From Podarcis liolepis (Eukaryota), in assembly GCA_965112155.1 (NCBI GenBank), contig OZ218098.1: a stretch of DNA of 64,000 nt. The stretch is one strand, 5' to 3'. Position 1 is the first letter of the stretch; each line of letters starts with the position of its first letter. Made by a program: the position numbers and the translations under genes. The notes under the pieces were generated by a model that saw nothing but the letters and a program-made list of their open reading frames with translations, searched no databases and was not told the DNA's origin. This document shows, piece by piece, positions 2,933-36,900 of this stretch.

Positions 2933-3100
2933 ACCTTCCGGTCGTGTTTGCCAATCCGTACAATGATGTCGTCTTTAGTGAAATTCTTGTCCCATGGTGG
3001 GTAGAAGATGCAGTGGGCAGCAGTTAGGATCCAGCGATTACTGATGAGACTGGCTCCACATAGCAGCTCCTGGGGGCTCTTCCTGAAGAGCATCACTTGC
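2933..3100 (-). CDS. F2: F2 exon 10 (catalytic His57, 60-loop)
   Basis: ttctag|G...GT|gtaaga; [55 protein letters not shown]; 168 nt. Confidence 0.97.
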
Positions 3101-3382
3101 CTAGAACAAAATAGGCAGGGAAAGAGGGGCAAGGCTCAGCGTCTTAGCCGAAACAGCACATGACCAGAGCACAGGCTGCAGAGAACAAAACAGACTAGCA
3201 TCTTTCTACTGCACTGACAGGCCATTCTTGTGCTTCAAAGGAAGAGCGAGGCAGAAACACAAATTGCAAAAGTCTCTTCCTAGGGTTCCTGGTGCCATTT
3301 ACGGAGTTCCGAAAGGTCACCCGTCCATGCAAAAGAGTAGACAGGCATGGGAACATAAGCAAACCTCAGTTATGATGCTTAC

Positions 3383-3509
3383 CACGGGGAGCTGCCTTTT
3401 TCAGCATCGGATCCCTTCACAATTCGGCCTGCCAGATAGGAGTCCAGCAGCTCCTGCTCAGTCTTATCAGATACGTGCAGCTTCTCAAACAGAGGACGGG
3501 AACCACAGT
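3383..3509 (-). CDS. F2: F2 exon 9 (A chain, second FXa site, B-chain N-terminus)
   Basis: ttccag|AC...TG|gtaagc; [29 protein letters not shown]|[14 protein letters not shown]; 127 nt. Confidence 0.96.
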
Positions 3510-4182
3510 CTGGAAATACAGATCCATTCTTCTGTAACTACCCAGTTCTCAAATATGAACATATCTTTCATAAGCTAGCATTTCTGCTACAAGAAGATAA
3601 TAATTGGTGGTGACTAAGACATTGACCCGGAGCTGGAATTTTATCTCATCTTGTTGGAAAAGTGAATAATGGGAATTGATTTGGAGCATAGGTTCAGTCC
3701 TGGACAGTCTATATAAAATGCTGTTTTTATTCCTTTCAAAAGGTTTACATGAGTGCCAGCTAGATTATCGGACTTATGCTATTCCACCCTTAAGTTAAGG
3801 GATGCTAAACTCTGGCTGGATAGGACCATGTCTGAATGGATGGGGAGAGCATCCCCTTGTAGCCCACCTCCTGAACATTCTGGGGGATCTTCTGGTTAGA
3901 TGCTTCTGTTACAGCTCTGATCTCGCTGGGGAATGGACAGGGTCATCAACAGTATCACCCCTAAGTGCCCACTCTGGCACTGCGGAGCCTGAAACACACT
4001 TGGTTCTCCAGTGAGCTTTGGACAACGAAACAGGTCATGTGACCGCAACAGTACAAGTGGCATCTTGCACCAAGGCCAACCAAGTACAGGTCAGAGCATG
4101 TGACACCATTGTGCCCTTGGGTAGCCGTCTGGCAGAGGTGTTTTTTTGGGGTTTTTTGAGCTAGTGAATGTTGGCTGCTGTT

Positions 4183-4375
4183 AGTTAGTTAGTTAGTATA
4201 CCGTCCTTCGTTCACAATATAAAAATACAAAATGAGAACACAAAATACATAATAAACAAACCAATAAGTCCCCTCCCACAAAAACACTTAAAAGGATATA
4301 GGATGTTAATCAGCCATAGGCCTGGTTGAAAAGGAATGTTTTCGCCTGGCATCTAAAGGTGTACAAGGAAGGCTG
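4183..4375 (-). mobile_element. LINE (L2-like) 3' fragment
   Basis: (TTAG)n tail followed by ...ggaatgttttcgcctggcatctaaaggt; family assigned from recalled similarity. Confidence 0.45.
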
Positions 4376-4422
4376 TGAGTGCTTGGAAAGTTTCTGATCA
4401 ATTAAAAAGGTGCCACTGATTA

Positions 4423-6583
4423 CCGTATTTTTCGCCCCATAAGACGCACTTTTTCCTCTCCAAAAATGAAGAGGAAATCGGGGGTGCGTCTTATGGGGCG
4501 AATGCCTGCAAGCCTCGCGCCCTCGGCAGGAGGTCCCACCGGGTGTGCGAGGCTTGGGGCGGCAGCCTGTCGCCCGAAGCACGGGGAGCCCTCGGGAGGG
4601 CTCCCCCTGCTTCGGGCGAGTGTCTGCAAGCCTCGCGCACCCGGCAGGAGGTCCCACTGGGTGCGCGAGGCTTGGGGCGGCAGCGGACTTCTAGCTTCTA
4701 GGTGCGCGCAAGCAGTCCGCTGCCGCCCCAAGCCTGGCGCACCCGGCAGGGGGTGCGCGAGGCTTGGGGCGGCAGCGGACTGCTTGCGCGCACCTAGAAG
4801 CTAGCAGTCCGCTGCCGCCCCAAGCCTGGTGCACCCGCAGGAGGTCCCACCGGGTGCGCCAGGCTTGGGGCGGCAGCGGACTGCTAGCTTCTAGGTGCGC
4901 GCAAGCAGTCCGCTGCCGTCCCAAGCCTGGTGCACCCGGCAGGGGGTGCGCGAGGCTTGGGGCGGCAGCGGACTGCTTGCGCGCACCTAGAAGCTAGCAG
5001 TCCGCTGCCGCCCCAAGCCTGGCGCACCCGGTGGGACCTCCTGCCGGGTGCGCCAGGCTTGGGGCGGCAGCGGACTGCTAGCTTCTAGGTGCGCGCAAGC
5101 AGTCCGCTGCCGCCCCAAGCCTCGCGCACCGCCAGGCTTGGGGCGGCAGCGGACTGCTTGCGCACCCCCTGCCGGGTGCACCAGGCTTGGGACGGCAGCG
5201 GACTGCTTGCGCGCACCTAGAAGCTAGCAGTCCGCTGCCGCCCCAAGCCTGGCGCACCCGGTGGGACCTCCTGCGGGTGCACCAGGCTTGGGGCGGCAGC
5301 GGACTGCTAGCTTCTAGGTGCGCGCAAGCAGTCCGCTGCCGCCCCAAGCCTCGCGCACCCCCTGCCGGGTGCGCGAGGCTTGGGGCGGCAGCGGACTGCT
5401 TGCGCGCACCTAGAAGCTAGCAGTCCGCTGCCGCCCCAAGCCTGGCGCACCCGGTGGGAGGTCAGTGCCGGGTGCGCCAGGCTTGGGGCGGCAGCGGACT
5501 GCTTGCGCGCACCTAGAAGCTAGCAGTCCGCTGCCGCCCCAAGCCTGGCGCACCCGCAGGAGGTCCCACTGGGTGCGCCAGGCTTGGGGCGGCAGCGGAC
5601 TGCTTGCGCGCACCTAGAAGCTAGCAGTCCGCTGCCGCCCCAAGCCTGGCGCACCCGCAGGAGGTCCCACCGGGTGCGCCAGGCTTGGGGCGGCAGCGGA
5701 CTGCTAGCTTCTAGGTGCGCGCAAGCAGTCCGCTGCCGCCCCAAGCCTGGCGGTGCGCGAGGCTTGGGGCGGCAGCGGACTGCTTGCGCGCACCTAGAAG
5801 CTAGCAGTCCGCTGCCGCCCCAAGCCTGGCGCACCCGGCAGGAGGTCCCACCGGGTGCGCCAGGCTTGGGGCGGCAGCGGACTGCTAGCTTCTAGGTGCG
5901 CGCAAGCAGTCCCCTGCCGCCCCAAGCCTGGCGCACCCGGCAGGGGGTGCGCGAGGCTTGGGGCGGCAGCGGACTGCTTGCGCGCACCTAGAAGCTAGCA
6001 GTCCGCTGCCGCCCCAAGCCTGGCGCACCCGGCAGGAGGTCCCACCGGGTGCGCCAGGCTTGGGGCGGCAGCGGACTGCTAGCTTCTAGGTGCGCGCAAG
6101 CAGTCCCCTGCCGCCCCAAGCCTGGCGCAACCGGTGGGACCTGCTGCCGGGTGCGCCAGGCTTGGGGCGGCAGCGGACTGCTTGCGCGCACCTAGAAGCT
6201 TGGGGCGCACTGAGCTCAGCACGCCCCAAGCTCCTGGTATAGCGCAGCGATCCGCTAGCCCTGGGAGAGCCCCGCGGCTCTCCCAGGGCTAGCGGACTGC
6301 TTGCCGGCACGCAGAAGCTTGGGGCGCACTGACCTCAGCTTGCCCCAAGCTTCTGGATTAGCGCAGGAGTCCGCTAGCCCTGGGAGAGGCGCCCCGCTCT
6401 CCCACGCTAGCGGAGACCTTGCCTGCACGCAGAAGCTTGGGGCGCGCTGAGCTCCGCACGCCCCAAGCTCCTGGTGTAGCGCAGCGCACCTGGGGGGGAA
6501 ATAAATTTTTTTCCCTTTATTTCCCCCCAAAAAATCTAGGTGCGTCTTATGGGCCGGTGCGTCTTATGGGGCGAAAAATACGG
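4423..6583. mobile_element. Non-autonomous Tc2/pogo-type DNA transposon with expanded foldback interior
   Basis: Perfect 27-bp TIR CCGTATTTTTCGCCCCATAAGACGCAC (4423-4449 and 6557-6583), TA on both flanks, subterminal GTGCGTCTTATGGG copies, no transposase ORF. Confidence 0.9.
4620..6200. repeat. GC-rich array of about 32 units in alternating orientation
   Basis: Core AGCAGTCCGCTGCCGCCCCAAGCCTGGCGCACC and its reverse complement alternate almost strictly (copies counted by eye). Confidence 0.95.
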
Positions 6584-6996
6584 TATATATTCCTAATACC
6601 CCCTCCTACACACTGTGGTTAGCAGCCACTGTCTGAAAAGAGACATTTCCCTCCCCCCATTCACTCTGGAGGAATTGCCTCCTCAAAAATTATAGTCTGC
6701 TTCTTGCTTCAGCAGAACCGGGTTGAGCCATTCTCAGGCAGTGTGTGCTTGAGAAGCAGCTGGCACTGAATTGACATCAGGTTCTTTCATCAGACGGCAT
6801 CTCCCTCACCGAGGCAAGTCAGGGCCACAGGAGAAATGGGATTTCATCAGGTCCAACCCATGCCATAATTTTCCAAAAATGAGATAAACAGGAACATTCA
6901 CACCAAGTAGGAAAAAATTAGCCTGAGGAGAGTTTGGAGAGCTAACCGCTAACGGCTGCTTCAATGAAGGCAGGAAAGCAAACTGGATTCTAGAAG

Positions 6997-7151
6997 TAGA
7001 TAGGTAGCCGTGTTGGTCTGCCATAGTCAAAATAAAAAAAATTCCTTCCAGTAGCACCTTAAAGACCAACTAAGTTAGTTCTTGGTATGAGCTTTCGTGT
7101 GCATGCACACTTCTTCAGATACACGGTGCTACTGGAAGGAATTTTTTTATT
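6997..7151. mobile_element. Penelope-like retroelement terminal fragment with partial inversion
   Basis: Flanked by a 13-bp direct repeat TGGATTCTAGAAG (6984-6996 and 7152-7164); internal inverted copy of aaattccttccagtagcacc; motif gagctttcgtgtgcatgcacacttcttcaga. Confidence 0.7.
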
Positions 7152-7349
7152 TGGATTCTAGAAGACCCTGTTTGCTTTTCTGCCTTTGACCACAAGGTGG
7201 AGCCAGTAACCACAATCAGCAAGAAGAGAAACCATTCCAGCCCCAGTATTAAAAAAGGGTCCTATTATTCAGCAATGTGTTGTACCAAGAAGTTGTGGCT
7301 TAATTAATTGTTATTTTTATTTCTTTTGACTTTATCTTGGCCCTCTCAC

Positions 7350-7460
7350 CTGCTTCGCCTTGACCAAACGTCTTAGGATCAAAGAAGGTTTTGTGTTCTT
7401 GGACAGTAGTCCGGCCTGCTCTTTGCTCATCCTCATAATCGAAATCATCCACAAAACTTT
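7350..7460 (-). CDS. F2: F2 exon 8 (linker with first FXa site, start of A chain)
   Basis: tttcag|AA...G|gtgaga; SFVDDFDYEDEQRAGR|TTVQEHKTFFDPKTFGQGEA; 111 nt. Confidence 0.94.
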
Positions 7461-7920
7461 CTGAAAGAGAAGACCAGGGCGGAGAAGAACTTAATTCACA
7501 GAAGAGTCAGTCTCCTCATTCCTGCTAAATCTACTTTCTACAATGGCCAGATACAAGCAGGGGCAGGGGGCTATCTTCAGGATACTTATGTGTGTGTGTG
7601 GGGGGGGTGTTCAGCAGGTGTTGACTCTATGGCCATCTCCTGTTCTACAACAGGGGTAGGCAGAAGAAAGATTGGGATCTGTGGGGAGGTCTTGGGGTGA
7701 TTCGCAATCTCACTCCCAGTTGTCTAACAATAGCAATAACTTAAGCTTCCCATGCCATGTTCTAAAAGGATGAAAAAGAGTGATTGGGTGAAAACCCAGA
7801 GCAGGTTTTGGGTTCTGTTTACTGATCACGACTTCCTAGGCTCAGCATGCGTTCTTAGCATATGTCTGCCTGGCTGGGACATTATTTTGCACTTGGCTCT
7901 GGCTGGTGGACCTCAGGGTT

Positions 7921-7924
<4 letters not shown>

Positions 7925-7950
<26 letters not shown>
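7925..7950. repeat. (CA)n microsatellite
   Basis: Direct read. Confidence 0.9.
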
Positions 7951-7951
<1 letters not shown>

Positions 7952-8251
7952 TGGTAGATCCTGCAAGCCTGCAATCTGCCCATCGCAGCTCTACATAACC
8001 ATGAAAAGGCACAAGAGCCCTGCCTTCTGCTCTTCCTGGCCACCCTATCTACTTCCTACCTGCAGGCCACCAGAGAAAGCGATTAAGTGAGTGGAAGCCC
8101 ATCAAATCCACGTGAAGCTCTCAACACGTGCACACCAATACCAGCATGCATACATGACTCCCAGCATGCACCTGGCTCTCCCACATAAACCATCCTCCCG
8201 TCTCATCTTAAGAAACTCCTCTTTACCACCCGTCTCTTTCAGGCTCCTTAC

Positions 8252-8557
8252 CGCAGTAGTTCAAGTCACAATAGTCAAAGGTCACGTTAGGATGGTTGAT
8301 GTAGCACCAGACGCCTTCGTCGTCCTCATCAGGGTTGCGGCAATAATTCTGCACCAGGTTAGGGTTGCCATGGAAGGGTTTCCCGTGGCTCATCGCTCTC
8401 GCTTGTTCAGAGGCCCATGGCAAGCACTGGGCCCCGGAAAGGGTGACGGAGAGGGTCCCCGTATACTGCAGCCCCTTGTTCGGCACACAAGGCCCTTGCT
8501 TCTTCTGCTCTTGCCCTGGGGTCCTTGGGGAAATTGGAACCGAGGTCCGGTTCTCAC
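8252..8557 (-). CDS. F2: F2 exon 7 (linker and kringle 2)
   Basis: tttcag|GT...G|gtaagg; ENRTSVPISPR|T...CVPNKGLQYTG...NYCRNPDEDDEGVWCY...CDLNYC; 306 nt. Confidence 0.96.
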
Positions 8558-14454: not shown

Positions 14455-14712
14455 CCGTATTTTTCGCTCTATAAGACACACCAGACCATAAGACACACCT
14501 AATTTGTGGAGGAGGAAAATATGAAAAAAATATTCTGAATTTCAGAAGCTAGAACAAGAAGAGGGATTGCTGTGCAGTGAAAGCAGCGATCCCTCTTGCT
14601 GTTCTGGCTTCTGGGATAGCTGTGCAGCCTGCATTCACTCCATAAGACCCACACACATTTCCCCTTACTTTTTAGGAGGGAAAAAGTGAGTCTTATAGAG
14701 CAAAAAATACGG
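14455..14712. mobile_element. Tc2/pogo-type MITE, short relative of the 4423-6583 element
   Basis: TIR CCGTATTTTTCGCTCTATAAGAC / GTCTTATAGAGCAAAAAATACGG; TA TSD. Confidence 0.88.
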
Positions 14713-15255
14713 TAATTGGGACATACAGATAGATGATGAGAAATGTAGTGGTGTAGGAGAGCTGGAAAAAAATGTCACATCTGGCTACCAATGTGCCCCT
14801 TTGATTTCAGATAGTACCTGGGTAGATGAGTCTAAAAAGCTCAGGACACATTTTTTTCACAGCCCTCTAGCAGCTATGGTGGCTAATTTACCAGAAGTAA
14901 CTTATTTAGTGTTAACTCTGGAAGTGTATAATTGATTCTAACCAAACTAAGCCTATTTTTATAAATCTTTATTATTTGTAAAGGGTATCTTTGTTTGAAC
15001 AATTTATTATCCCTTTAGAGCTGCACTGGGTCTTTGTACTTTGTCCTTCCAAGCTGTGATGCATTGTGGTTTAAATCCCTTATTATTTGTTTCTTTTCTT
15101 TTTGCTATGTTTGCACTTTTGGTTGTTATTAAATTAATACATTTTATTATAAAATAAAATAAAATTACAACATCTGGAAGGAGACTGGGGAATTAAAGAA
15201 GAAATCCACTGTGAAATCCTCACAATGGTTGCTGGGCCCTTGAATATGTGACTTA

Positions 15256-23738: not shown

Positions 23739-25444
23739 TCATGTCCCTACCTCCACCTCCACCACCTCCGCCACTGTGCTAAAACTGACACCCTCTTGAA
23801 TAATGAACATGTCACTGGCGGAGCCCTGCTCCTGCACAATGATGCATTCTTTCTCCGTGTCCGAGACAGCAATCTCAATGACGTTCTTGTGCTTGGCAGA
23901 GCTCTGTGGTGCGGTAACATAGTGCCCATCATTGGTGATAAGGAGCTCTGTGTGGTTTCCAGGCCCTGCCGTGTCCACAGAGTGCACTACCAGCACAGGT
24001 GGCTGCTCTGAAGCTGGCAGCTCCTGGGGGGCTTTTGTGTCCCTTTTGGATGGATCCCCATCTAGGTTTCCTTTGTGCTCAAGCTGGTGACGTCGCAGGC
24101 TCTGGGGGAGGGCGTAGCCCATGCCACAAATTTGGCACTGGTGCGGCTTGTCAGCGTGGTGGGCTTTCTGGTGGCGTCGCAATTTTGTGGCCAGAGGATA
24201 GGATTTAGGGCACAGATGGCAGCGGAAAGGGCGCTCGCCTGTGTGCAAACGTTCGTGAGCCCGTAACGTGTGGGGATCACGCAGTGCTTTCCCACACACT
24301 GTGCACAGGTGAGCCTCACCTGTGTGGGAGATCAGGTGACGGCGCAGCTCAGGGCGCTGTGGGAAGGCATCTCCACAGAAGTGGCAGCGGTAAGGGCGCT
24401 CCCCTGTATGCAACCGAAGGTGCCCACGGAGATTGCCCTGCTGGCGGAAAGACTTGGGGCAGTAGGGGCAGGTATATGGGCGTTCCCCTGTGTGCAGCCG
24501 CATATGGTTGCGCAACGACCCAGGGTTGGCCAGCTGCCGCTCACATATCACACACTGGCAGGCGGCAGCAGCAGCAGATGGCCTTGGCTCCTTAACCTGG
24601 TGGGTTTTGCGATGGATCCGAAGAGAGGGCCGGCGGGCAAAGGATTTCCCACAGTCAGGGCATACAAAAGGGCGCTGGCCCGTGTGCAGCACCTGGTGTT
24701 CTTGAAGGTCCCGTTTGGTGCCGTAACTCTTGTGGCACTGTGGGCAGGGGAATGGCCGCACCCCTCGGTGGCCCAGTGTGTGCGCTTTAAAGCTTTCTTC
24801 CGAGCTATAGCTCTTGCCACACTCTGTGCACAGGAACGGTTTGTGATCAGTGTGCACAAAGTGGTGCTTCTTCAGGTGGCAAAGCTGCAGGAAGGCTTTC
24901 CCACACTCTTCGCACCGGTATCGTCGCTCGTGGTCTGCCTCCTTGAGCTGTGGAGCACCACCCATGTTGCTTGGAGACACTTCCTCCTGCTTGGGATTTT
25001 CACTCTGCTCCTCCGCCCTGTCCCTGGGTGTAGACATGGCACATCCACTGGGGGCTCCTTCTGCACAAGATTGGCCCCTCAACACCTCCACCTTCTCAGC
25101 CAAGTGAGCCCTGGGTTGAATTGCACTGGATGGGGGCGGCCGTGAACAAATGTCAGTTGGTTTTACCTTGGATAGTGTCTCATTCACTTGCTCTGTTTGT
25201 GGATGCAGCACACCATCCTCTTTACTTCCACCCTCCTCAGCCACAGAGCAGCTCACAACGGGCTGCTTCTCTCCATGCTGCTCCTTGAAGTCCCTGAGCT
25301 CAAGTTGCAGGAACCCATCTTCATTCCTTTTCTTGTGATCATTTTCCAGGCCAGGAGGTTGCTTGACTGGCAGCTTCTTATCCAGCAAAGGAAGACAATG
25401 GGCTCTGGCTTTCTGCTCCACAACCTTGGGGATATCAAGAGCAC
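23739..25444 (-). CDS. ZNF408: ZNF408 last exon, 10 C2H2 zinc fingers
   Basis: ttgcag|GT acceptor in frame with the 560-aa ORF; fingers from [23 protein letters not shown] to [23 protein letters not shown]; C-terminal [10 protein letters not shown]; syntenic position. Confidence 0.96.
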
Positions 25445-26198
25445 CTGCAATTTGAACCAGTAACCATTAGCTCCCTTAACAAAGAAAACAAAGTAATTAT
25501 TGACACTTCAAGGTGAGACTTCTGTTTCTATGCACTGCTCTACTCCCCACCCACTGCCTCAATCATGCTGAACAGAGATCTTTTGCTGAGCACAGAGGCT
25601 CAAGAAGTCCCACTAGTTATCAAAGCAGTGCTTCTGAGAATTGAAACATAGCTGGGTTTAGCTAGGGAACTCTGCTTGAATTTAAATATCCTAAAAGTTT
25701 AGACTTTGGGGAGGAATATTTTAGTATATTCTGTAAGGCTCACTTTGGAAACACAGCTTCCTTAATCTTTTTGACGCAAATTGGATTTCTCTGAAGTGCT
25801 TTACTACATAACTTAGAATGAGGTTACAGAAATGTGTAGAAACAGCAAATTTCAACACTCTTATCATTTGTAATCTTTGCTGTTTTCTTTAGAAAGCAAG
25901 AATTGCAAACTAAAACAGCTTATCCACACAGTCACAATACCAGGGACTTGTGTTTCTCCCTTATTTACAACAAGCAGAGTTACCTTGAGCAGTTTAATTC
26001 ACCTAAGAAAATTCTTAAGGAAAAGACATGGATATAGAATGTCACAGGAAAATGAAGTTCTGTGTGTGAGAAAACCAAGAGAGAGTAAGGAGCTTGACTG
26101 ATTCCAGCATTATGGACAGGAGTTGCCCACATTATTAGTGGGTGCCCATTATTGTTAAAATGGTATAAAACTAACATAAGCTTCTAGCGCAGACATAC

Positions 26199-30861: not shown

Positions 30862-31180
30862 CAGTGGTGCCTCGCAAGACGAAAATAATCTGTTCCGCAA
30901 GTCTCTTCATCTAGTGGTTTTTTCGTCTTGCGAAGCAACCCTATTAGCGGCTTAGCGCTATTAGCGGTTTAGCGGCTTAGCGGCTAAAAGTCTATTAGCG
31001 GCTTAGCGGCTTAGAAAAAGGGGGGGGAGCGAAAAAAAATCGGAACACGCGCAAGACGTTTTCGTCTTGCGAAGCAAGCCCATAGGGAAATTCGTCTTGC
31101 GAAGCAGCTCAAAAACGGAAAACCCTTTTGTCTAGCGGGTTTTCCGTCTTGCGAGGCATTCGTCTTGTGGGGCACCACTG
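30862..31180. mobile_element. Tigger/pogo-type MITE with internal TTAGCGGC tandem repeat
   Basis: TIR CAGTGGTGCCTCGCAAGACGAA / TTCGTCTTGTGGGGCACCACTG; TA TSD; multiple internal TTCGTCTTGCGA sites. Confidence 0.88.
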
Positions 31181-31657: not shown

Positions 31658-33297
31658 AGTTCTAAATCACTTATCTTGCTCTTGTAACTTGAACTCTTTA
31701 CGACTGAACCTGTGCTTGCTGCTAGCCTGAGTAAAGATCGCTTCCTTACTATGAAGTAAGCACTGTGTGATTTCAATCATGGAAATAAGGGGAAAGAGTT
31801 AATCATCTTCCCTAAGCACTGCTTCACCATCCCATTATCCTCCCTCTGCAGTATGTTTTTTAAGCTATTAAAAAAATAATCCCAAGATACAGTGATTGCT
31901 ACTATATCACATACAGTTCAGCCATCAGATCTACAGTAACAATTATTGGTAACTACTGTAATTCAACACATGTTCAACTGAGTTGTCAGAAATGGGATGA
32001 GCTTAGATTATTATTTGTAATACTACTACTACTTGTAAAGTCACTTTGGGGAAATATAGCCAGGTGGTGAACTGTTTGCCTATAGAGCTTCAGCAGCTAC
32101 AAACTATCCCCCCATTTTCATTCAGTTGTAGTAAATACTTGCCTCGCTAGATGGCCTGATACTACAGATGACCAACTCTCCCTACACAGTTGCGGTCACT
32201 CTGCAGTGACCTTTTAAGCAGCTGGGGGTAGTGCGCAGTAGTGGCTAGACTATGTAGGAGACCAAATGTTAAAACTGCTCAGATAATAGAGGAGTAAGTG
32301 GCCTTGAGCAACAATAACTTTCAGTGCCCCTTCACAGAATTGTTGAGTGGATAAAAATGTGTCTGACTGTAAGTTGTCTTGAGTACTTACTAGTAAAGTG
32401 GAATATAAACTAAGCAGACATCATGCCACATTCAGTCAGTTTCAACCCATGCAAGGAGCAGGGATATGCCAAGTGAGGGCTGAGTTGTGTGCATGATGGA
32501 GCAGATACATGAATGCTTCATGAAGAAGGGAGAGAGAAACTTCACCTTTGAAGCACATTCTCAATGGGACAACTAAGTAACATGAAGTGACTACAGTTCA
32601 GACTTCTATAGACAGAAAGAGGAAACTGTGGCACCAGAGCTAGATGTGTGTGCAGTTACCTTATAACATGAAAAACCTTGCTAGTTTGGACAAAAGGTCC
32701 CTCTAGCTCAGCATTCTAACAAGTCTGATATGAGGGCAATAGCCCACTCTGTGATGGTATTCAGTGGCATTCGGAAGCCGAAACACTGTGGCTAATAACC
32801 ATTGGTATTTATTCCCCATGAACTTTTTAAATCATCTTTTAATGTCATCTAAGCTAGTGGTCACCATATAGTGTGACAATGAATTCTGCATATTAATTAT
32901 GTAAGTACAGTACTTCCTTTTCTATCCCGTTTTGTTAGCTTACTGGGAAGCTCTAGCATCATGAGAGAGGGGGAAATGCCTTCTATCCCCTTTCTCCCAC
33001 CCATGCGCAGGTGTCAAGGATACCAGAAACCAATAAAAACTATTTTTTTGGCCACCCAAAAGTGACTAGATAACACTAAGACCAGGACAGCTGCACTTTG
33101 AAGAGAGAAATTGGGCAAGCAAGCTGCTTTCTTAACTGGTGGATAGAACAAGCTGCGCCTGCCAGAATCCCTTCTCCCGGCAACCGAGAAGGGTCGGGCG
33201 TCTAGATGTGGTTGGCCGGGCAGGGGGTCGCGAGAGGGCGCCCCCACCGGCCTGAGGGCTCTGACTGGAGGCCCAAACTTGCCCGCCCATCGCTCAC

Positions 33298-33500
33298 CGC
33301 CGGGCAGGCGCCCGCCTCCTGCTCCTCTTCCTCCGGACCAAGCAGGAGCAGCAGCGCCCCCGGCTGCAAGGGGCTCCCCACACACCACACACCAAGGCCC
33401 CTCTCGGCGGACAGGGAAGGGCCCAGGGCTAAGCCCCGCGGAAGGCTCCACACTGGGCAGCAGGACCAGCCGCCGCCGCCGCGCGCGTCCGGGGGCCGAC
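33298..33500 (-). CDS. ZNF408: ZNF408 exon 2 (PR/SET-like region start)
   Basis: ctttcag|GT...GCG|gtgagc; contains [30 protein letters not shown], recognisable ZNF408 N-terminal motif. Confidence 0.9.
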
Positions 33501-33610
33501 CTGAAAGGGAAGCAGAGACACGAAAGGGACGGTGAGAGCAGTCAAGGACGCGGGGCGGCAAGCGCTCTCCGCTCCCTCCCGTCTCCCGAAAGACACCCGC
33601 TCGCCCTCAC

Positions 33611-33632
33611 TCTGGCCGGGGCTCTGCTCCAT
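33611..33632 (-). CDS. ZNF408: ZNF408 exon 1 coding part (MEQSPGQ)
   Basis: gttATGG Kozak context; 22 nt ending A|gtgagg; phase 1 fits the next exon. Confidence 0.7.
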
Positions 33633-33789
33633 AACGGCTCCTGGGCGGAACGTTCCGCGCAGCGCGCCGTGTTTGCGCCCGGACGGCTTTTCCCTTTCTC
33701 TCGCCGGCCTTTCCCCGAGGAGGCGGGAGCGTGTTGCCACGGAGACTCGTCCTTTTTCCGGTTCGGAGGCGGATGTTTGTGAAAGGGGG

Positions 33790-33938
33790 GTTTGACAGGC
33801 GGGAGTGGCGGCTGCTGGCGAGCGGAGGAGCGCTCAGGGAGCGCGCAGCGCAGGAACTCCGTACTGGGCGCGCGTCGTCGGCGTCGGGGCTGCATCTCTT
33901 CCCTTCCCCCCACCGTGCACACCTTCATGAGATAAACA
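33790..33938 (+). other. ARHGAP1: Putative ARHGAP1 non-coding exon 1 (5' boundary approximate)
   Basis: Donor AACA|gtgagt at 33938/33939 inside the CpG island; next acceptor ttttag| at 41206 precedes the ATG. Confidence 0.55.
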
Positions 33939-36900
33939 GTGAGTGGAGGCCCAGGCGCCGCTTCGAGGGCGGGGCTCCTTCTGGGTTTATTCTCTTGCTT
34001 ATTGGGGGTGGGGGGAAGCGGGGGGCTGGGGACGAAGTTGAGGGAGGGCGCATGCGTCGACTCCAGCCTCAGCGTGACTTTCGGTGGGAAGGAGGGAGGT
34101 CTCTTGTCAAGCAGGGGCCGCTGCCAGGCTTCTGGGCTGGGCTTCTGTCTCGACCCTCCCACCATCTCCGTGGGTGTCGTCGTTCTCAGGGCTGCCAGGT
34201 TCAGATCTATGTCAGATTTTGGAAGACGCCCCCCCCCGTTCCCTCAGCAACCCAAGGGGCCCCCATGCCTTTGTTGTTAAGGAGCCCCCCTCCCCCGCCC
34301 TCGGTCCTTTCCTGGAGATCTTTTTTGGTGCTGGAGGTGGAGGTACCTACACTGGGGAGGCTTTTAGGAGTGTGCGCGTGCGTACAGGTGCTTAAAGGCG
34401 GCGGGGGTGGGGAGAGATAGGAAACGTTCGTTTACGTTAAAGTGAACTGATTTTAGGATCCAAACCCTTGCCACCTGTGCACACTGTTTTTTTGGGGGGG
34501 ATACTTGCAATTTGGGAAATACTTGCAACTGAGTTAAGCAGGGGTAGTAAGGTCAAGGGGTTGTGGGTTGCTTAAAAGTAAACATATAAAGACTTTCCCG
34601 CTGCAAAAATAGTGACAGAACTCCCCATTTCTATTGAATGGGGCTTGTCAGAGTAGTGTTGGATGACTGCGTGTTGGCCTCCTGTCCCTTACGCAGAAGG
34701 GTGCTGGAGTGAATTGTGATGTCTCCACTGCCATCTGTATGAAGGTGTTGGGTTCCACTAGGGATCCCATTTGTCCCATGGAGTTAAGCATATGTTGATG
34801 GTACTCCGTTTCTCTGTTACACCTGAATCAAGTGTGACTGTGCAAGCCCTGGACGAGTATGTGGTATGCACAGGAAGTGGGGATGAATCCTGTTAAGACC
34901 AAGGCCCTGTAAGTGACTAGCTCTGTGCATGGATTTTTTCTGGACCAGGGTTCTACTCCCTCTGCTGGAACTGGAATGTCATATGGGGGTGCTCCTTGAT
35001 CATTCTTTGTTTCTGGGGAAACAAATGACCTCAGTGGCTAAGGGTTACTTTTGCCACCTTGTACTCTTGCACTAGCTGTGACCATTCTTGGACCAGTGCA
35101 GCCAAGCTACAGTGACCCATGCATTGGTAAGCTCAAGACTGCATTATGGCAGTTTGGTCCATGTGGGACTGGCCTTAAGGCTGGTTTGGAAGCTGCAGCA
35201 TATAACATCTGTGTTGAGGGACTTGTGCTGCTGAGCGAAGTTGAAGGTTTATTATACCTACATATTCCTAAACTTAAGGGGAAGAAGTTTGAGAGACTGC
35301 CTTCTCACATATAGATGTGTCTGTTTGCTAAGGTCTTCAGAGAAGGCCCTATCACTTATGCTGTGGCCCACAGAGACTTACCTCATGTTAAGCTGGAAGA
35401 GGGCTTTCCCCTTTTTGGCCTCCAGCCTGTGAGATGTACCTACTGTGGTGAGCTTTCATCTGCTGTTAAAAACACAGCTACCTTATTTGAGGCTTCCCTG
35501 GCCTCTGATACAATGACGTGTTTGTGTTATGTTTCTTTTATTGGACTGTTTCTGTTGTATATAGAATTGCTTTGTTACACTGAATTATTTTGTTGCACTC
35601 CATCTTGATATTTTAAAGAGGTGGTATGTAACTATTTTAATTTAAACTTTCAAAGTTTCTGGAGCCCTTTTGGGGTTTTAATCTGGTAATTCTAAATGTA
35701 TGCTTTGCTAGTTTCAATAAATCATCTCACAGAAACTGCTTTCTCCTGCTTTTATCAGGATTCTTACATCATGCTTCTGTGGTAAATGTAACCCCACAAA
35801 TACTTGAGTCTACTTTGTGGCCCATCACAAGATTGTCACTAGGGCTTTGTGGTTTACGTATTTGAGCTGGAAAGAAAGGGGGAGTTGTATAGTTCTGTAA
35901 AGGAGAAAGAGTGGGAAGTGTGGGGTGTGGTAGGGGCTCAGTAAAACTAGAGAGGTGTGATAGCACTTGTTTAAGGAGAAATCATTATTTATTGTGTTTT
36001 GGTTCATGCATGTCCATAAACAGAGCATTGAACTAGGATGAAGCCACATATAGGATTATTATGTCTGACTTGTGAAGAGCATTCTGAAGAAGGAAATATG
36101 ACAGGAATGCCCACTTTCATGACAAATTTTTGCTTTGAGATAATGAGTGAAAGAAATTAGAGGGATTATATAGCCTGCTTGGAAGTCTTTGATGTTCAGC
36201 TGTTCCTGCTGAACAAAAGCAGTCAAATTTAAAGTTCTTTGGTTTAAATGAAATGTTTGAGATTATTCTATGCATCTATGTTTTCATGTCCTTTGAGCTT
36301 GCAGTAAAAACCTTAAAGCAAATAGACAGAATTATCCTGGAAGCAGGGTAAGTATGTGCGTTAAACATGTGGCACAATTCTTCCCCATCCCCCACCCCAT
36401 GATTGAATTTGTGTAACATTTCCAGAGTCTCAGTGTAAGCTCAGCAGCTGGAAAAGGTTGGCTGAGGCACGGCTGAGTAGTCAGGTTTATGATCTGACCG
36501 GAAAGGTGTGGTGTCTTTTTAGTTCTGTCACCTAACTCAGTTCTGGGACTTCAGCAGATTGCATTGTTCAGTGAGTGTATCCTGTTTGATTTAAGCTGGT
36601 AGCTTCTGAGGGGAGAGAGGATCTGAGGGAGGGACTACCTTGGCTTAACTCTTCTGCTCCCTCCCCTTGAGGCTGACAACAGTGTTGGCTAGGTAAACGT
36701 AATGGCTGCCTTTCTTTACCGTACTAAAATATGGATAAAATTAAGTGGATTTCACAATCAATGCAGCACTGGAGGCCCAAACAGCTGTAGTGGACACTTC
36801 TATATTGAGTCAGCAGGGTTGTTGATAATATGAAAGAAATAGGGTGTGATGTTCCCATGACCTAAAAGCAGGAATCTTAACTCACCAGCTGTTAAAACTA

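Follow-up and report, generated by a model that had tools for sequence, protein, structure and literature searches.

The inverted-repeat array examined here forms the interior of a 2,161-bp non-autonomous DNA transposon (positions 4423–6583 of the window, by which we mean the whole stretch of 64,000 nucleotides that was analysed). Comparison of this copy with its paralogues supports, with fairly good confidence, the following history: a young TA-targeting transposon acquired an array that was likely founded by a single hairpin-primed fold-back, likely lengthened mainly by direct duplication and likely reshaped by a minority of template switches. The initial annotation of this DNA had placed the array at 4680–6200, close to the limits of the array proper (4669–6181), and did not include the transposon ends at 4423–4449 and 6557–6583.

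The two ends of the element are terminal inverted repeats (TIRs) of 27 bp without a single mismatch between them, where no such match is expected by chance, and a TA dinucleotide is found on each side. No transposase frame was detected inside 4423–6583, the longest stop-free frame being 126 aa. The 48-nt left end had 109 exact matches in the 1.57-Gb genome, compared with none for the reversed control. We analyzed 112 loci, namely the window, 39 loci chosen by array likeness, 20 chosen by their right end and 52 taken from the left-end matches listed; the sample is therefore biased by the 39 loci selected for resemblance to the window array. Both TIRs were present in 107 of the 112 loci, with TA on both sides in all 107. 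The other five (L040, L119, L158, L189, and L195) had one TIR absent and were excluded from all counts. No outer flanks common to any pair of the 107 copies were found, and neither a second haplotype nor a segmental duplicate was seen among them. The median divergence of the ends from the majority sequence was 0.74% (n = 105 copies). With their TIRs, TA duplication, unrelated flanks at dispersed sites and lack of a transposase frame, the copies resemble MITEs, but they are not short and uniform in length as a strict definition demands, since they range from 422 to 2,466 bp (median 1,358 bp, n = 107). In the left module, the number of 118-bp hairpin units differs among paralogues (left-part lengths of 127, 245, 363, and 481).

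An element-free version of the window locus was found in contigs of three public runs (X1, X2, and X4, labelled as other organisms), in which the left flank, ending at 4422, is connected to the right flank, starting at 6585. In these records the flanks meet at places 430/442, 1217/1229, and 394/406, with 11 unread letters in between, hence the 2.16-kb element is missing there. The 11 extra letters may be polymorphic, represent a footprint or stem from a small deletion when the element inserted. In run X16, one contig diverges from the window at 4422 before any TIR sequence and a second begins at 6585; these contigs fit an element-free allele and are only a hint of it, as they do not show the absence itself. 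Because of the TIRs, the TA dinucleotides, the low divergence of the ends, the many copies and the element-free contigs at the window locus, the element is a young, TA-targeting, non-autonomous cut-and-paste transposon of the Tc1/mariner-pogo group.

The family assignment was left at the Tc1/mariner-pogo level because an autonomous partner was not found in the loci searched. A DDE_1 search returned 150 scored matches, of which the best 30 loci contained neither a TIR match nor a BLAST match to the element within 1.5-kb flanks. Two BrkDBD matches had surroundings without these TIRs and were not elements of this kind. We presume that the TIR of the element resembles those of Tc2-type MITEs such as MER104. 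According to the available portions of two reports (PMC7386202; PMC9976928), several Passer elements have TIRs of 27–28 bp, and the pogo superfamily and its Passer family share with our element a TA duplication and TIRs under 30 bp; unlike in that family, no transposase is tied to the ends of the element here. A pogo/Passer placement would be a lead only; an autonomous member of that group would be expected to share these TIRs and to carry a DD35D transposase with Brk/HTH domains. Related TIRs with TA also bound a 259-bp element elsewhere in the window (14455–14713), and several other short families (169–727 bp) with these TIRs were present in the loci retrieved. These families with shared TIRs point to one transposase lineage that would have spawned many non-autonomous families. 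One locus (L156, G000:C1:136698400-136703400) carries a 467-bp element, an older relative whose TIRs are of the same type and whose left-module hairpins have diverged, adjoining a truncated copy of the array-bearing family. This relative indicates that hairpin-rich interiors would be older than the array.

The element is intronic in the prothrombin (F2) gene, which lies on the minus strand with exons within 2962–8540. The exon at 2962–3096 matches thrombin (serine-protease exon, E = 1.8e-24), an activation-site exon is located near 3390–3525, and a kringle exon near 8240–8540 was read by eye. Farther along the window, a 575-codon frame with many C2H2 zinc fingers occupies 23739–25466 on the minus strand, which we take to be probably ZNF408 from its synteny with F2. 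A CpG-rich stretch at 33200–34400 looks like a two-way promoter, and a short nested tandem repeat with periods of 8, 26, and 34 is located at 30940–31014.

Table 1. Features of the transposon and of the array in the window copy.
Feature	Position	Strand	Basis or remark
Left TA of target-site duplication	4421–4422	+	Sequence; TA on both sides in 107/107 complete copies
Whole non-autonomous DNA transposon, 2,161 bp	4423–6583	+	TIRs; no transposase frame; genome matches of left end
Left terminal inverted repeat, 27 bp	4423–4449	+	0 mismatches to right TIR
Left module	4450–4668	+	Subterminal repeat and ~2 copies of the 118-bp hairpin unit with ancestral B loop
Variable array with 31 loops (a, B, C, d) between 32 alternating inverted arms of 23 bp; 73% G+C	4669–6181	.	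Arm parse
Block X (loops 1–6), template of inverted copy 5160–5420	4669–4951	+	300-nt complementarity
Inverted copy of block Y (reversed B, a, reversed d)	4997–5163	-	220-nt complementarity; d loop private
Out-of-register junction of the two inverted blocks	5158–5183	.	Only R-R spacer of its kind; ~6 nt microhomology (5158–5163)
Inverted copy of block X	5160–5420	-	X arm/stem substitutions in reverse: 5174, 5186, 5275 versus 4926, 4915, 4825
11-nt patch inside B loop	5458–5468	-	Reverse complement of own right module 6326–6336; variant in 2/107 copies
Block Y (a, d, a, B, a), template of inverted copy	5719–5938	+	Family's usual orientation
Direct duplication	5906–6112	+	Private arm substitution at 5906 and 6100, offset 194, same strand, 1/107 copies
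Right module	6182–6556	+	Ancestral reversed a, small G hairpin, 2.7 copies of the 119-bp hairpin unit
Right terminal inverted repeat, 27 bp	6557–6583	-	Match to left TIR
Right TA of target-site duplication	6584–6585	+	Sequence

The array of the window copy was parsed using a 23-bp arm drawn from the window (R, reverse; F, forward), and R and F arms alternate. Each R-F gap holds the 20-nt loop a, and each F-R gap holds loop B (35 or 36 nt), C (26 nt, a deletion form of B) or d (a 13-nt deletion loop). Loop a was found seven times forward and eight times reversed, loop B five times forward and three times reversed in addition to one patched loop (5443–5479), and loop C three times forward and once reversed in addition to a partial reversed C at the out-of-register junction. 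Loop d occurs once per orientation (5122–5134 and 5748–5760) and only in the window among the 107 copies. The loop classes thus occur as both complements, as previously noted for this DNA: all three pairs quoted then are present, and the private d loop, which was not named there, behaves likewise. With 222 inverted pairs of at least 20 nt in the region (the longest of 329 nt) and a fold of 4627–4900 that reaches z = -22.35 (0 of 200 shuffles as good), this structure is far beyond chance. Only short repetitive frames were seen in the array of the window copy, and no host function is indicated for the array of this intronic element.

Variation among paralogues is extensive. Among the 93 arrays of at least three loops, no two have the same loop string, and 23 of 23 pairs of copies with identical ends carry different arrays. 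Six of the 107 copies have no F arm and hence no inverse arm; L163 and L117, for example, read B, R, reversed a and then G, a small hairpin whose stem is 9 bp long. Copies of this kind would represent the first step of the history, with one arm and one a before G and no array. By contrast, 14 of the 107 copies (including L159 and L175) hold within the array the order R, reversed a, G, forward a, F, reversed B, R. The G stem, 9 bp long at its home position, reaches 42–89 bp at the internal position in the four copies measured, while the internal G loop is unflipped and keeps its ancestral orientation. An unflipped loop with a lengthened stem is what intrastrand fold-back predicts, and an a-G-a' fold-back, or small inverted triplication, likely founded the inverted arms. 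In this second step, synthesis would have folded back at G and recopied a, the arm (R) and B backwards before the strand returned to its template by way of the stem of B itself; the product would be arm-a-G-a'-arm'-B'-arm. The minimal unit R, a, F, B, with the a-G half missing, is found in copies such as L176, L199, and L118, suggesting as a third step that this half was lost to leave a unit of arm, a, inverse arm and B. For the reversed internal a, a mirror-image deletion of the a-G-a' spacer is an alternative to a flip, and the short copies without an array may have arisen by deletion instead of being ancestral. One array-less copy (L185) seemingly contains an independent fold-back inside the right module.

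The order of these stages is inferred from co-existing copies and is unproven by the tree of ends, in which 12 of 93 inner branches were supported, two of the 107 copies were omitted and two rows were long because of rearranged right ends. Labels were more clustered on this tree than after shuffling (34 changes versus 50.4), although it is too poorly resolved to order the stages. The founder layout (direct, inverted, direct copies of one short segment around a short spacer), met in 14 of the 107 copies, resembles the small inverted triplications (DUP/IN/DUP) described by Lei et al. (2026), for which fold-back of a 3' end followed by a second switch is one of two routes according to the portions of that article available (PMC13334657). 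Segments of tens to about 150 bp, a short spacer, short homology at the junction and slippage on the product are shared features. The triplications reported in those portions are rare, somatic or found in FEN1-deficient yeast, and usually removed (PMC13334657), whereas here one was fixed in a transposon, multiplied in head-to-tail fashion and carried to over 100 loci of the germline. That published class is further characterized by an origin at Okazaki junctions and a dependence on FEN1.

After the founder, array growth was likely mostly by direct head-to-tail duplication. Loop C, which we infer to have arisen once from B by deletion, was forward in 163 cases and reversed in six among the 107 copies, a count that omits the partial reversed C at three odd junctions (window, L157, and L190). 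Marker B35 was forward 151 times and reversed 11 times, two other markers gave ratios of 33/2 and 32/4, and 43 of the 46 arrays with two or more C loops had them in a single orientation. In a greedy parse for blocks of at least three loops already seen, 93 repeated blocks were direct and seven inverted, with one tie. Rare variants (present in at most two copies) that were repeated within a copy lay on the same strand in 16 cases (15 copies) and on both strands in two cases, both in the window copy. An earlier k-mer marker test on 58 copies agrees with this result, as private repeats were direct in eight copies and inverted in two. Runs of units in the same orientation reach five in L165 and seven in L188. 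The commonest repeat is a two-unit, 193-bp block (a+, C+, a-, B+) that already contains both orientations of a. In 56 of 76 cases the direct source was separated by an even number of units, as expected if misalignment favours the longer perfect match. Head-to-tail duplication of the unit, and later of the 193-bp repeat, would constitute a fourth step and may have occurred by slippage or unequal sister exchange, which in a single assembly leave patterns indistinguishable from each other and from those of gap repair.

These counts do not favour the mechanism proposed in the initial annotation, namely growth by iterative fold-back, in which each step recopies the preceding stretch backwards as in rolling-hairpin replication, rather than by slippage or unequal crossover. 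Such growth would be in keeping with the founding fold-back preserved in some copies, with the two long inverted blocks and the inverted patch of the window copy, and with the alternation of successive a loops in C-carrying copies (494 alternating versus 71 not). However, this alternation is absent from copies without C (45 versus 40), and it is carried by the direct 193-bp unit. We also ran a toy simulation with a fixed seed, in which arrays were grown to the observed lengths and shared ancestry, deletions and length-neutral flips were ignored. Under pure fold-back growth, about 43% of C loops were reversed and about 92% of the multi-C arrays contained the two orientations, against the 3.2% (5/155) and 6.5% (3/46) observed. 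A 5% share of inverted events fitted all three statistics, shares of 2% and 10% were borderline, and shares of 0% and of at least 20% did not fit, suggesting under this toy model about one inverted growth event in 20. Iterative fold-back is already contradicted at the family level, also by the 93 direct versus seven inverted blocks, and we regard it as very improbable. Fold-back likely founded the array and reshuffles it, but did not build it. A fixed direct higher-order unit with invariant orientation, which had been named as the observation that would overturn the fold-back reading, was half borne out: much of the family can be explained by the direct 193-bp unit with its two a orientations, yet the complete string of the window copy cannot, and orientation does vary.

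The analogy with parvoviral rolling-hairpin replication drawn for these loops fails the test published for it. In the available part of a study on AAV (PMC11575299), concatemers produced by rolling-hairpin replication have ITRs in random orientation within the molecule, while head-to-tail concatemers have a single orientation. The flip and flop ITRs of AAV, with complementary loop forms between palindromic arms and hairpin-primed synthesis, are indeed similar to what is seen here (PMC11575299). Unlike AAV, the element has no terminal hairpin, Rep, nick site or long frame; its hairpins are internal and its ends consist of a TIR and TA. Moreover, the loops of one array mostly share a single orientation, which the same text links to head-to-tail copying and not to the rolling hairpin (PMC11575299).

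Template switching between inverted arms, the other process invoked in the initial annotation, is nevertheless needed, given the founder layout in 14 of 107 copies, the reversed markers in 15 of 70 copies and the two inverted blocks of the window. Those 15 copies have a marker in the minority orientation among the 70 that carry markers, and some of them may share an origin. Single loops were flipped between unswapped flanks in L046 and L167, where a reversed B35 keeps its length and its flanking stems. Inverted blocks of several units were found in L066, L108, L179, and the window copy. One substitution in loop a was seen ten times forward and 26 times reversed, mostly beside unflipped loops, which fits arm-to-arm copying within a long a-F-loop-R-a' hairpin. 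L157 and L190 have in common a fold-back junction inside a loop, hence such junctions are inherited through transposition. As a fifth step, the nascent end would re-anneal on the wrong strand or on itself, which is possible because every loop sits between perfect arms; the outcome would be a flipped loop, a substitution moved to the opposite arm or an inserted inverted block. In a sixth step, a trans-acting Tc1/mariner-pogo transposase would have spread the successive versions. Additional rearrangements were observed in single copies. Almost the whole array of L179 is reversed and continues into an inverted left-module piece before rejoining the right end, and pieces of the left module were copied mid-array in L067 (loop 9) and L061 (loop 3). 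In the last loop of L103, a B loop folds back around 9–10 nt identical to a TIR/subterminal motif, apparently a templated patch.

Monttinen and Löytynoja (2022) described loops inverted between intact stems through interstrand switches, with substitutions copied from arm to arm (PMC8794818), and both in-place turning of loops with intact stems and arm-to-arm copying of substitutions are seen here. Their events, in the portions of the article available, are rare and mostly affect rRNA loops of 4–8 nt (PMC8794818), whereas ours involve loops of 20–36 nt and blocks of 200–300 nt in 15 of 70 copies. The median stem measured 77 bp where a alternates and 24 bp where it does not. A bolder reading, which we find rather doubtful, is that the array is a self-renewing substrate for template switching: once a small inverted triplication had set every loop between perfect arms, hairpin-primed recopying would convert neighbouring loops to their complements and actively maintain long palindromes, at rates that make every copy different within less than 1% end divergence, and possibly driven by the repair of transposase excision gaps.

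The window copy is an outlier, as it is the only one of the 107 with rare variants in both orientations. Its loops 11–16 are the reverse complement of loops 1–6 (block X; 4652–4951 versus 5160–5459, 300 nt with four mismatches, three of them outside X), and its loops 7–10 are the reverse complement of loops 22–26 (block Y; 4944–5163 versus 5719–5938, 220 nt with two mismatches). Two of the X markers are not private, being found in seven and nine of the 107 copies, and are weaker evidence; they may be recurrent CpG changes. The inverted copy of Y lies upstream of its template and that of X downstream, thus a single pass of simple self-fold-back cannot yield both. The simplest history takes two steps, either an interstrand switch that inserted the inverse of X..Y with its middle skipped, or two fold-backs in opposite directions. 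The arms, the reversed loops and, in the window copy, about 0.45 kb out of 1.5 kb (one or two inverted insertions) all require template switching.

Two other explanations of the window copy were weighed. In the first, direct duplication alone supplied length, inversion was length-neutral and due to recombination between arms, and the window segment was reversed in place, the founder being followed by no further inverted synthesis. In favour of this explanation, the two reversed blocks lie side by side and line up with a single inversion, individual loops turned between intact stems do occur (L046 and L167), and direct events predominate. However, in-place inversion of earlier direct duplicates requires four steps for the window copy (two direct duplications, a deletion and an inversion) compared with two events (an inverted insertion and a microhomology jump). 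It also leaves unexplained the 11-nt inverted patch, whose source in the right module is 870 bp from the patched B loop, and the fold-back junctions inside loops in L157, L190, and L103. In addition, arms of 23–77 bp are short for crossover. We consider in-place inversion improbable. In the second, the rearrangement is an assembly or read artefact, that is, a fold-back chimera in a G+C-rich palindrome. The outlier position of the window copy could be read in this way, but the inverted blocks differ from their templates at 4/300 and 2/220 positions, similar inverted junctions occur in other copies, with one common to two loci, and both TIRs and flanks are intact in the window copy. An artefact is scarcely credible, and the family-level result is independent of this copy. 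Inverted insertion by template switching is the reading we retain for the window copy.

Tandem repeats borne by MITEs are known in Xenopus, where, as outlined in the available sections of two reviews (PMC9659126; PMC6947457), Xstir is found in Xmix and miDNA4 in a Tc1/mariner MITE. As in those cases, a non-autonomous DNA transposon bears and spreads an internal tandem repeat of variable copy number. Here, unlike in Xstir and miDNA4, the repeat is a chain of alternating inverted arms, its loops switch orientation and its birth by fold-back is preserved, and the descriptions in those sections contain no orientation changes (PMC9659126; PMC6947457). In Galileo, restructuring and tandem repeats of non-autonomous copies, a likeness to our family, were credited to gap repair with slippage or a switch of template in the sections available (PMC4168063). 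Galileo belongs to the P superfamily, with 7–8 bp duplications and repeats inside long TIRs (PMC4168063), whereas our element has 27-bp TIRs and its inverted structure is internal. The literature searched, in sources other than subscription papers, Repbase and Dfam, listed no report of a DNA transposon of vertebrates that has such a chain of inverted arms inside it and preserves all stages; Repbase or Dfam may already contain the family. The mechanisms are each known; it is the architecture and the replicate series that are unusual.

As a rule, template switching at short inverted repeats has been deduced from isolated, scattered events, whereas here one substrate is present at more than 100 loci. 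Among its paralogues are copies without an array, copies that keep the founding fold-back, purely direct runs, higher-order units, single-loop flips and inverted blocks, and with all these stages at hand the relative rates of direct duplication, flipping and inverted insertion become measurable in a vertebrate germline. The family also brings a caution, as both loop orientations in an array do not prove that it grew by fold-back. If the array were indeed a self-renewing substrate, it would serve as a mobile record of fold-back synthesis, kept in the germline of a vertebrate and replicated a hundred-fold, and would offer a route for transposons to seed palindromic minisatellites. A single small inverted triplication can become a palindromic minisatellite and be spread by transposition.
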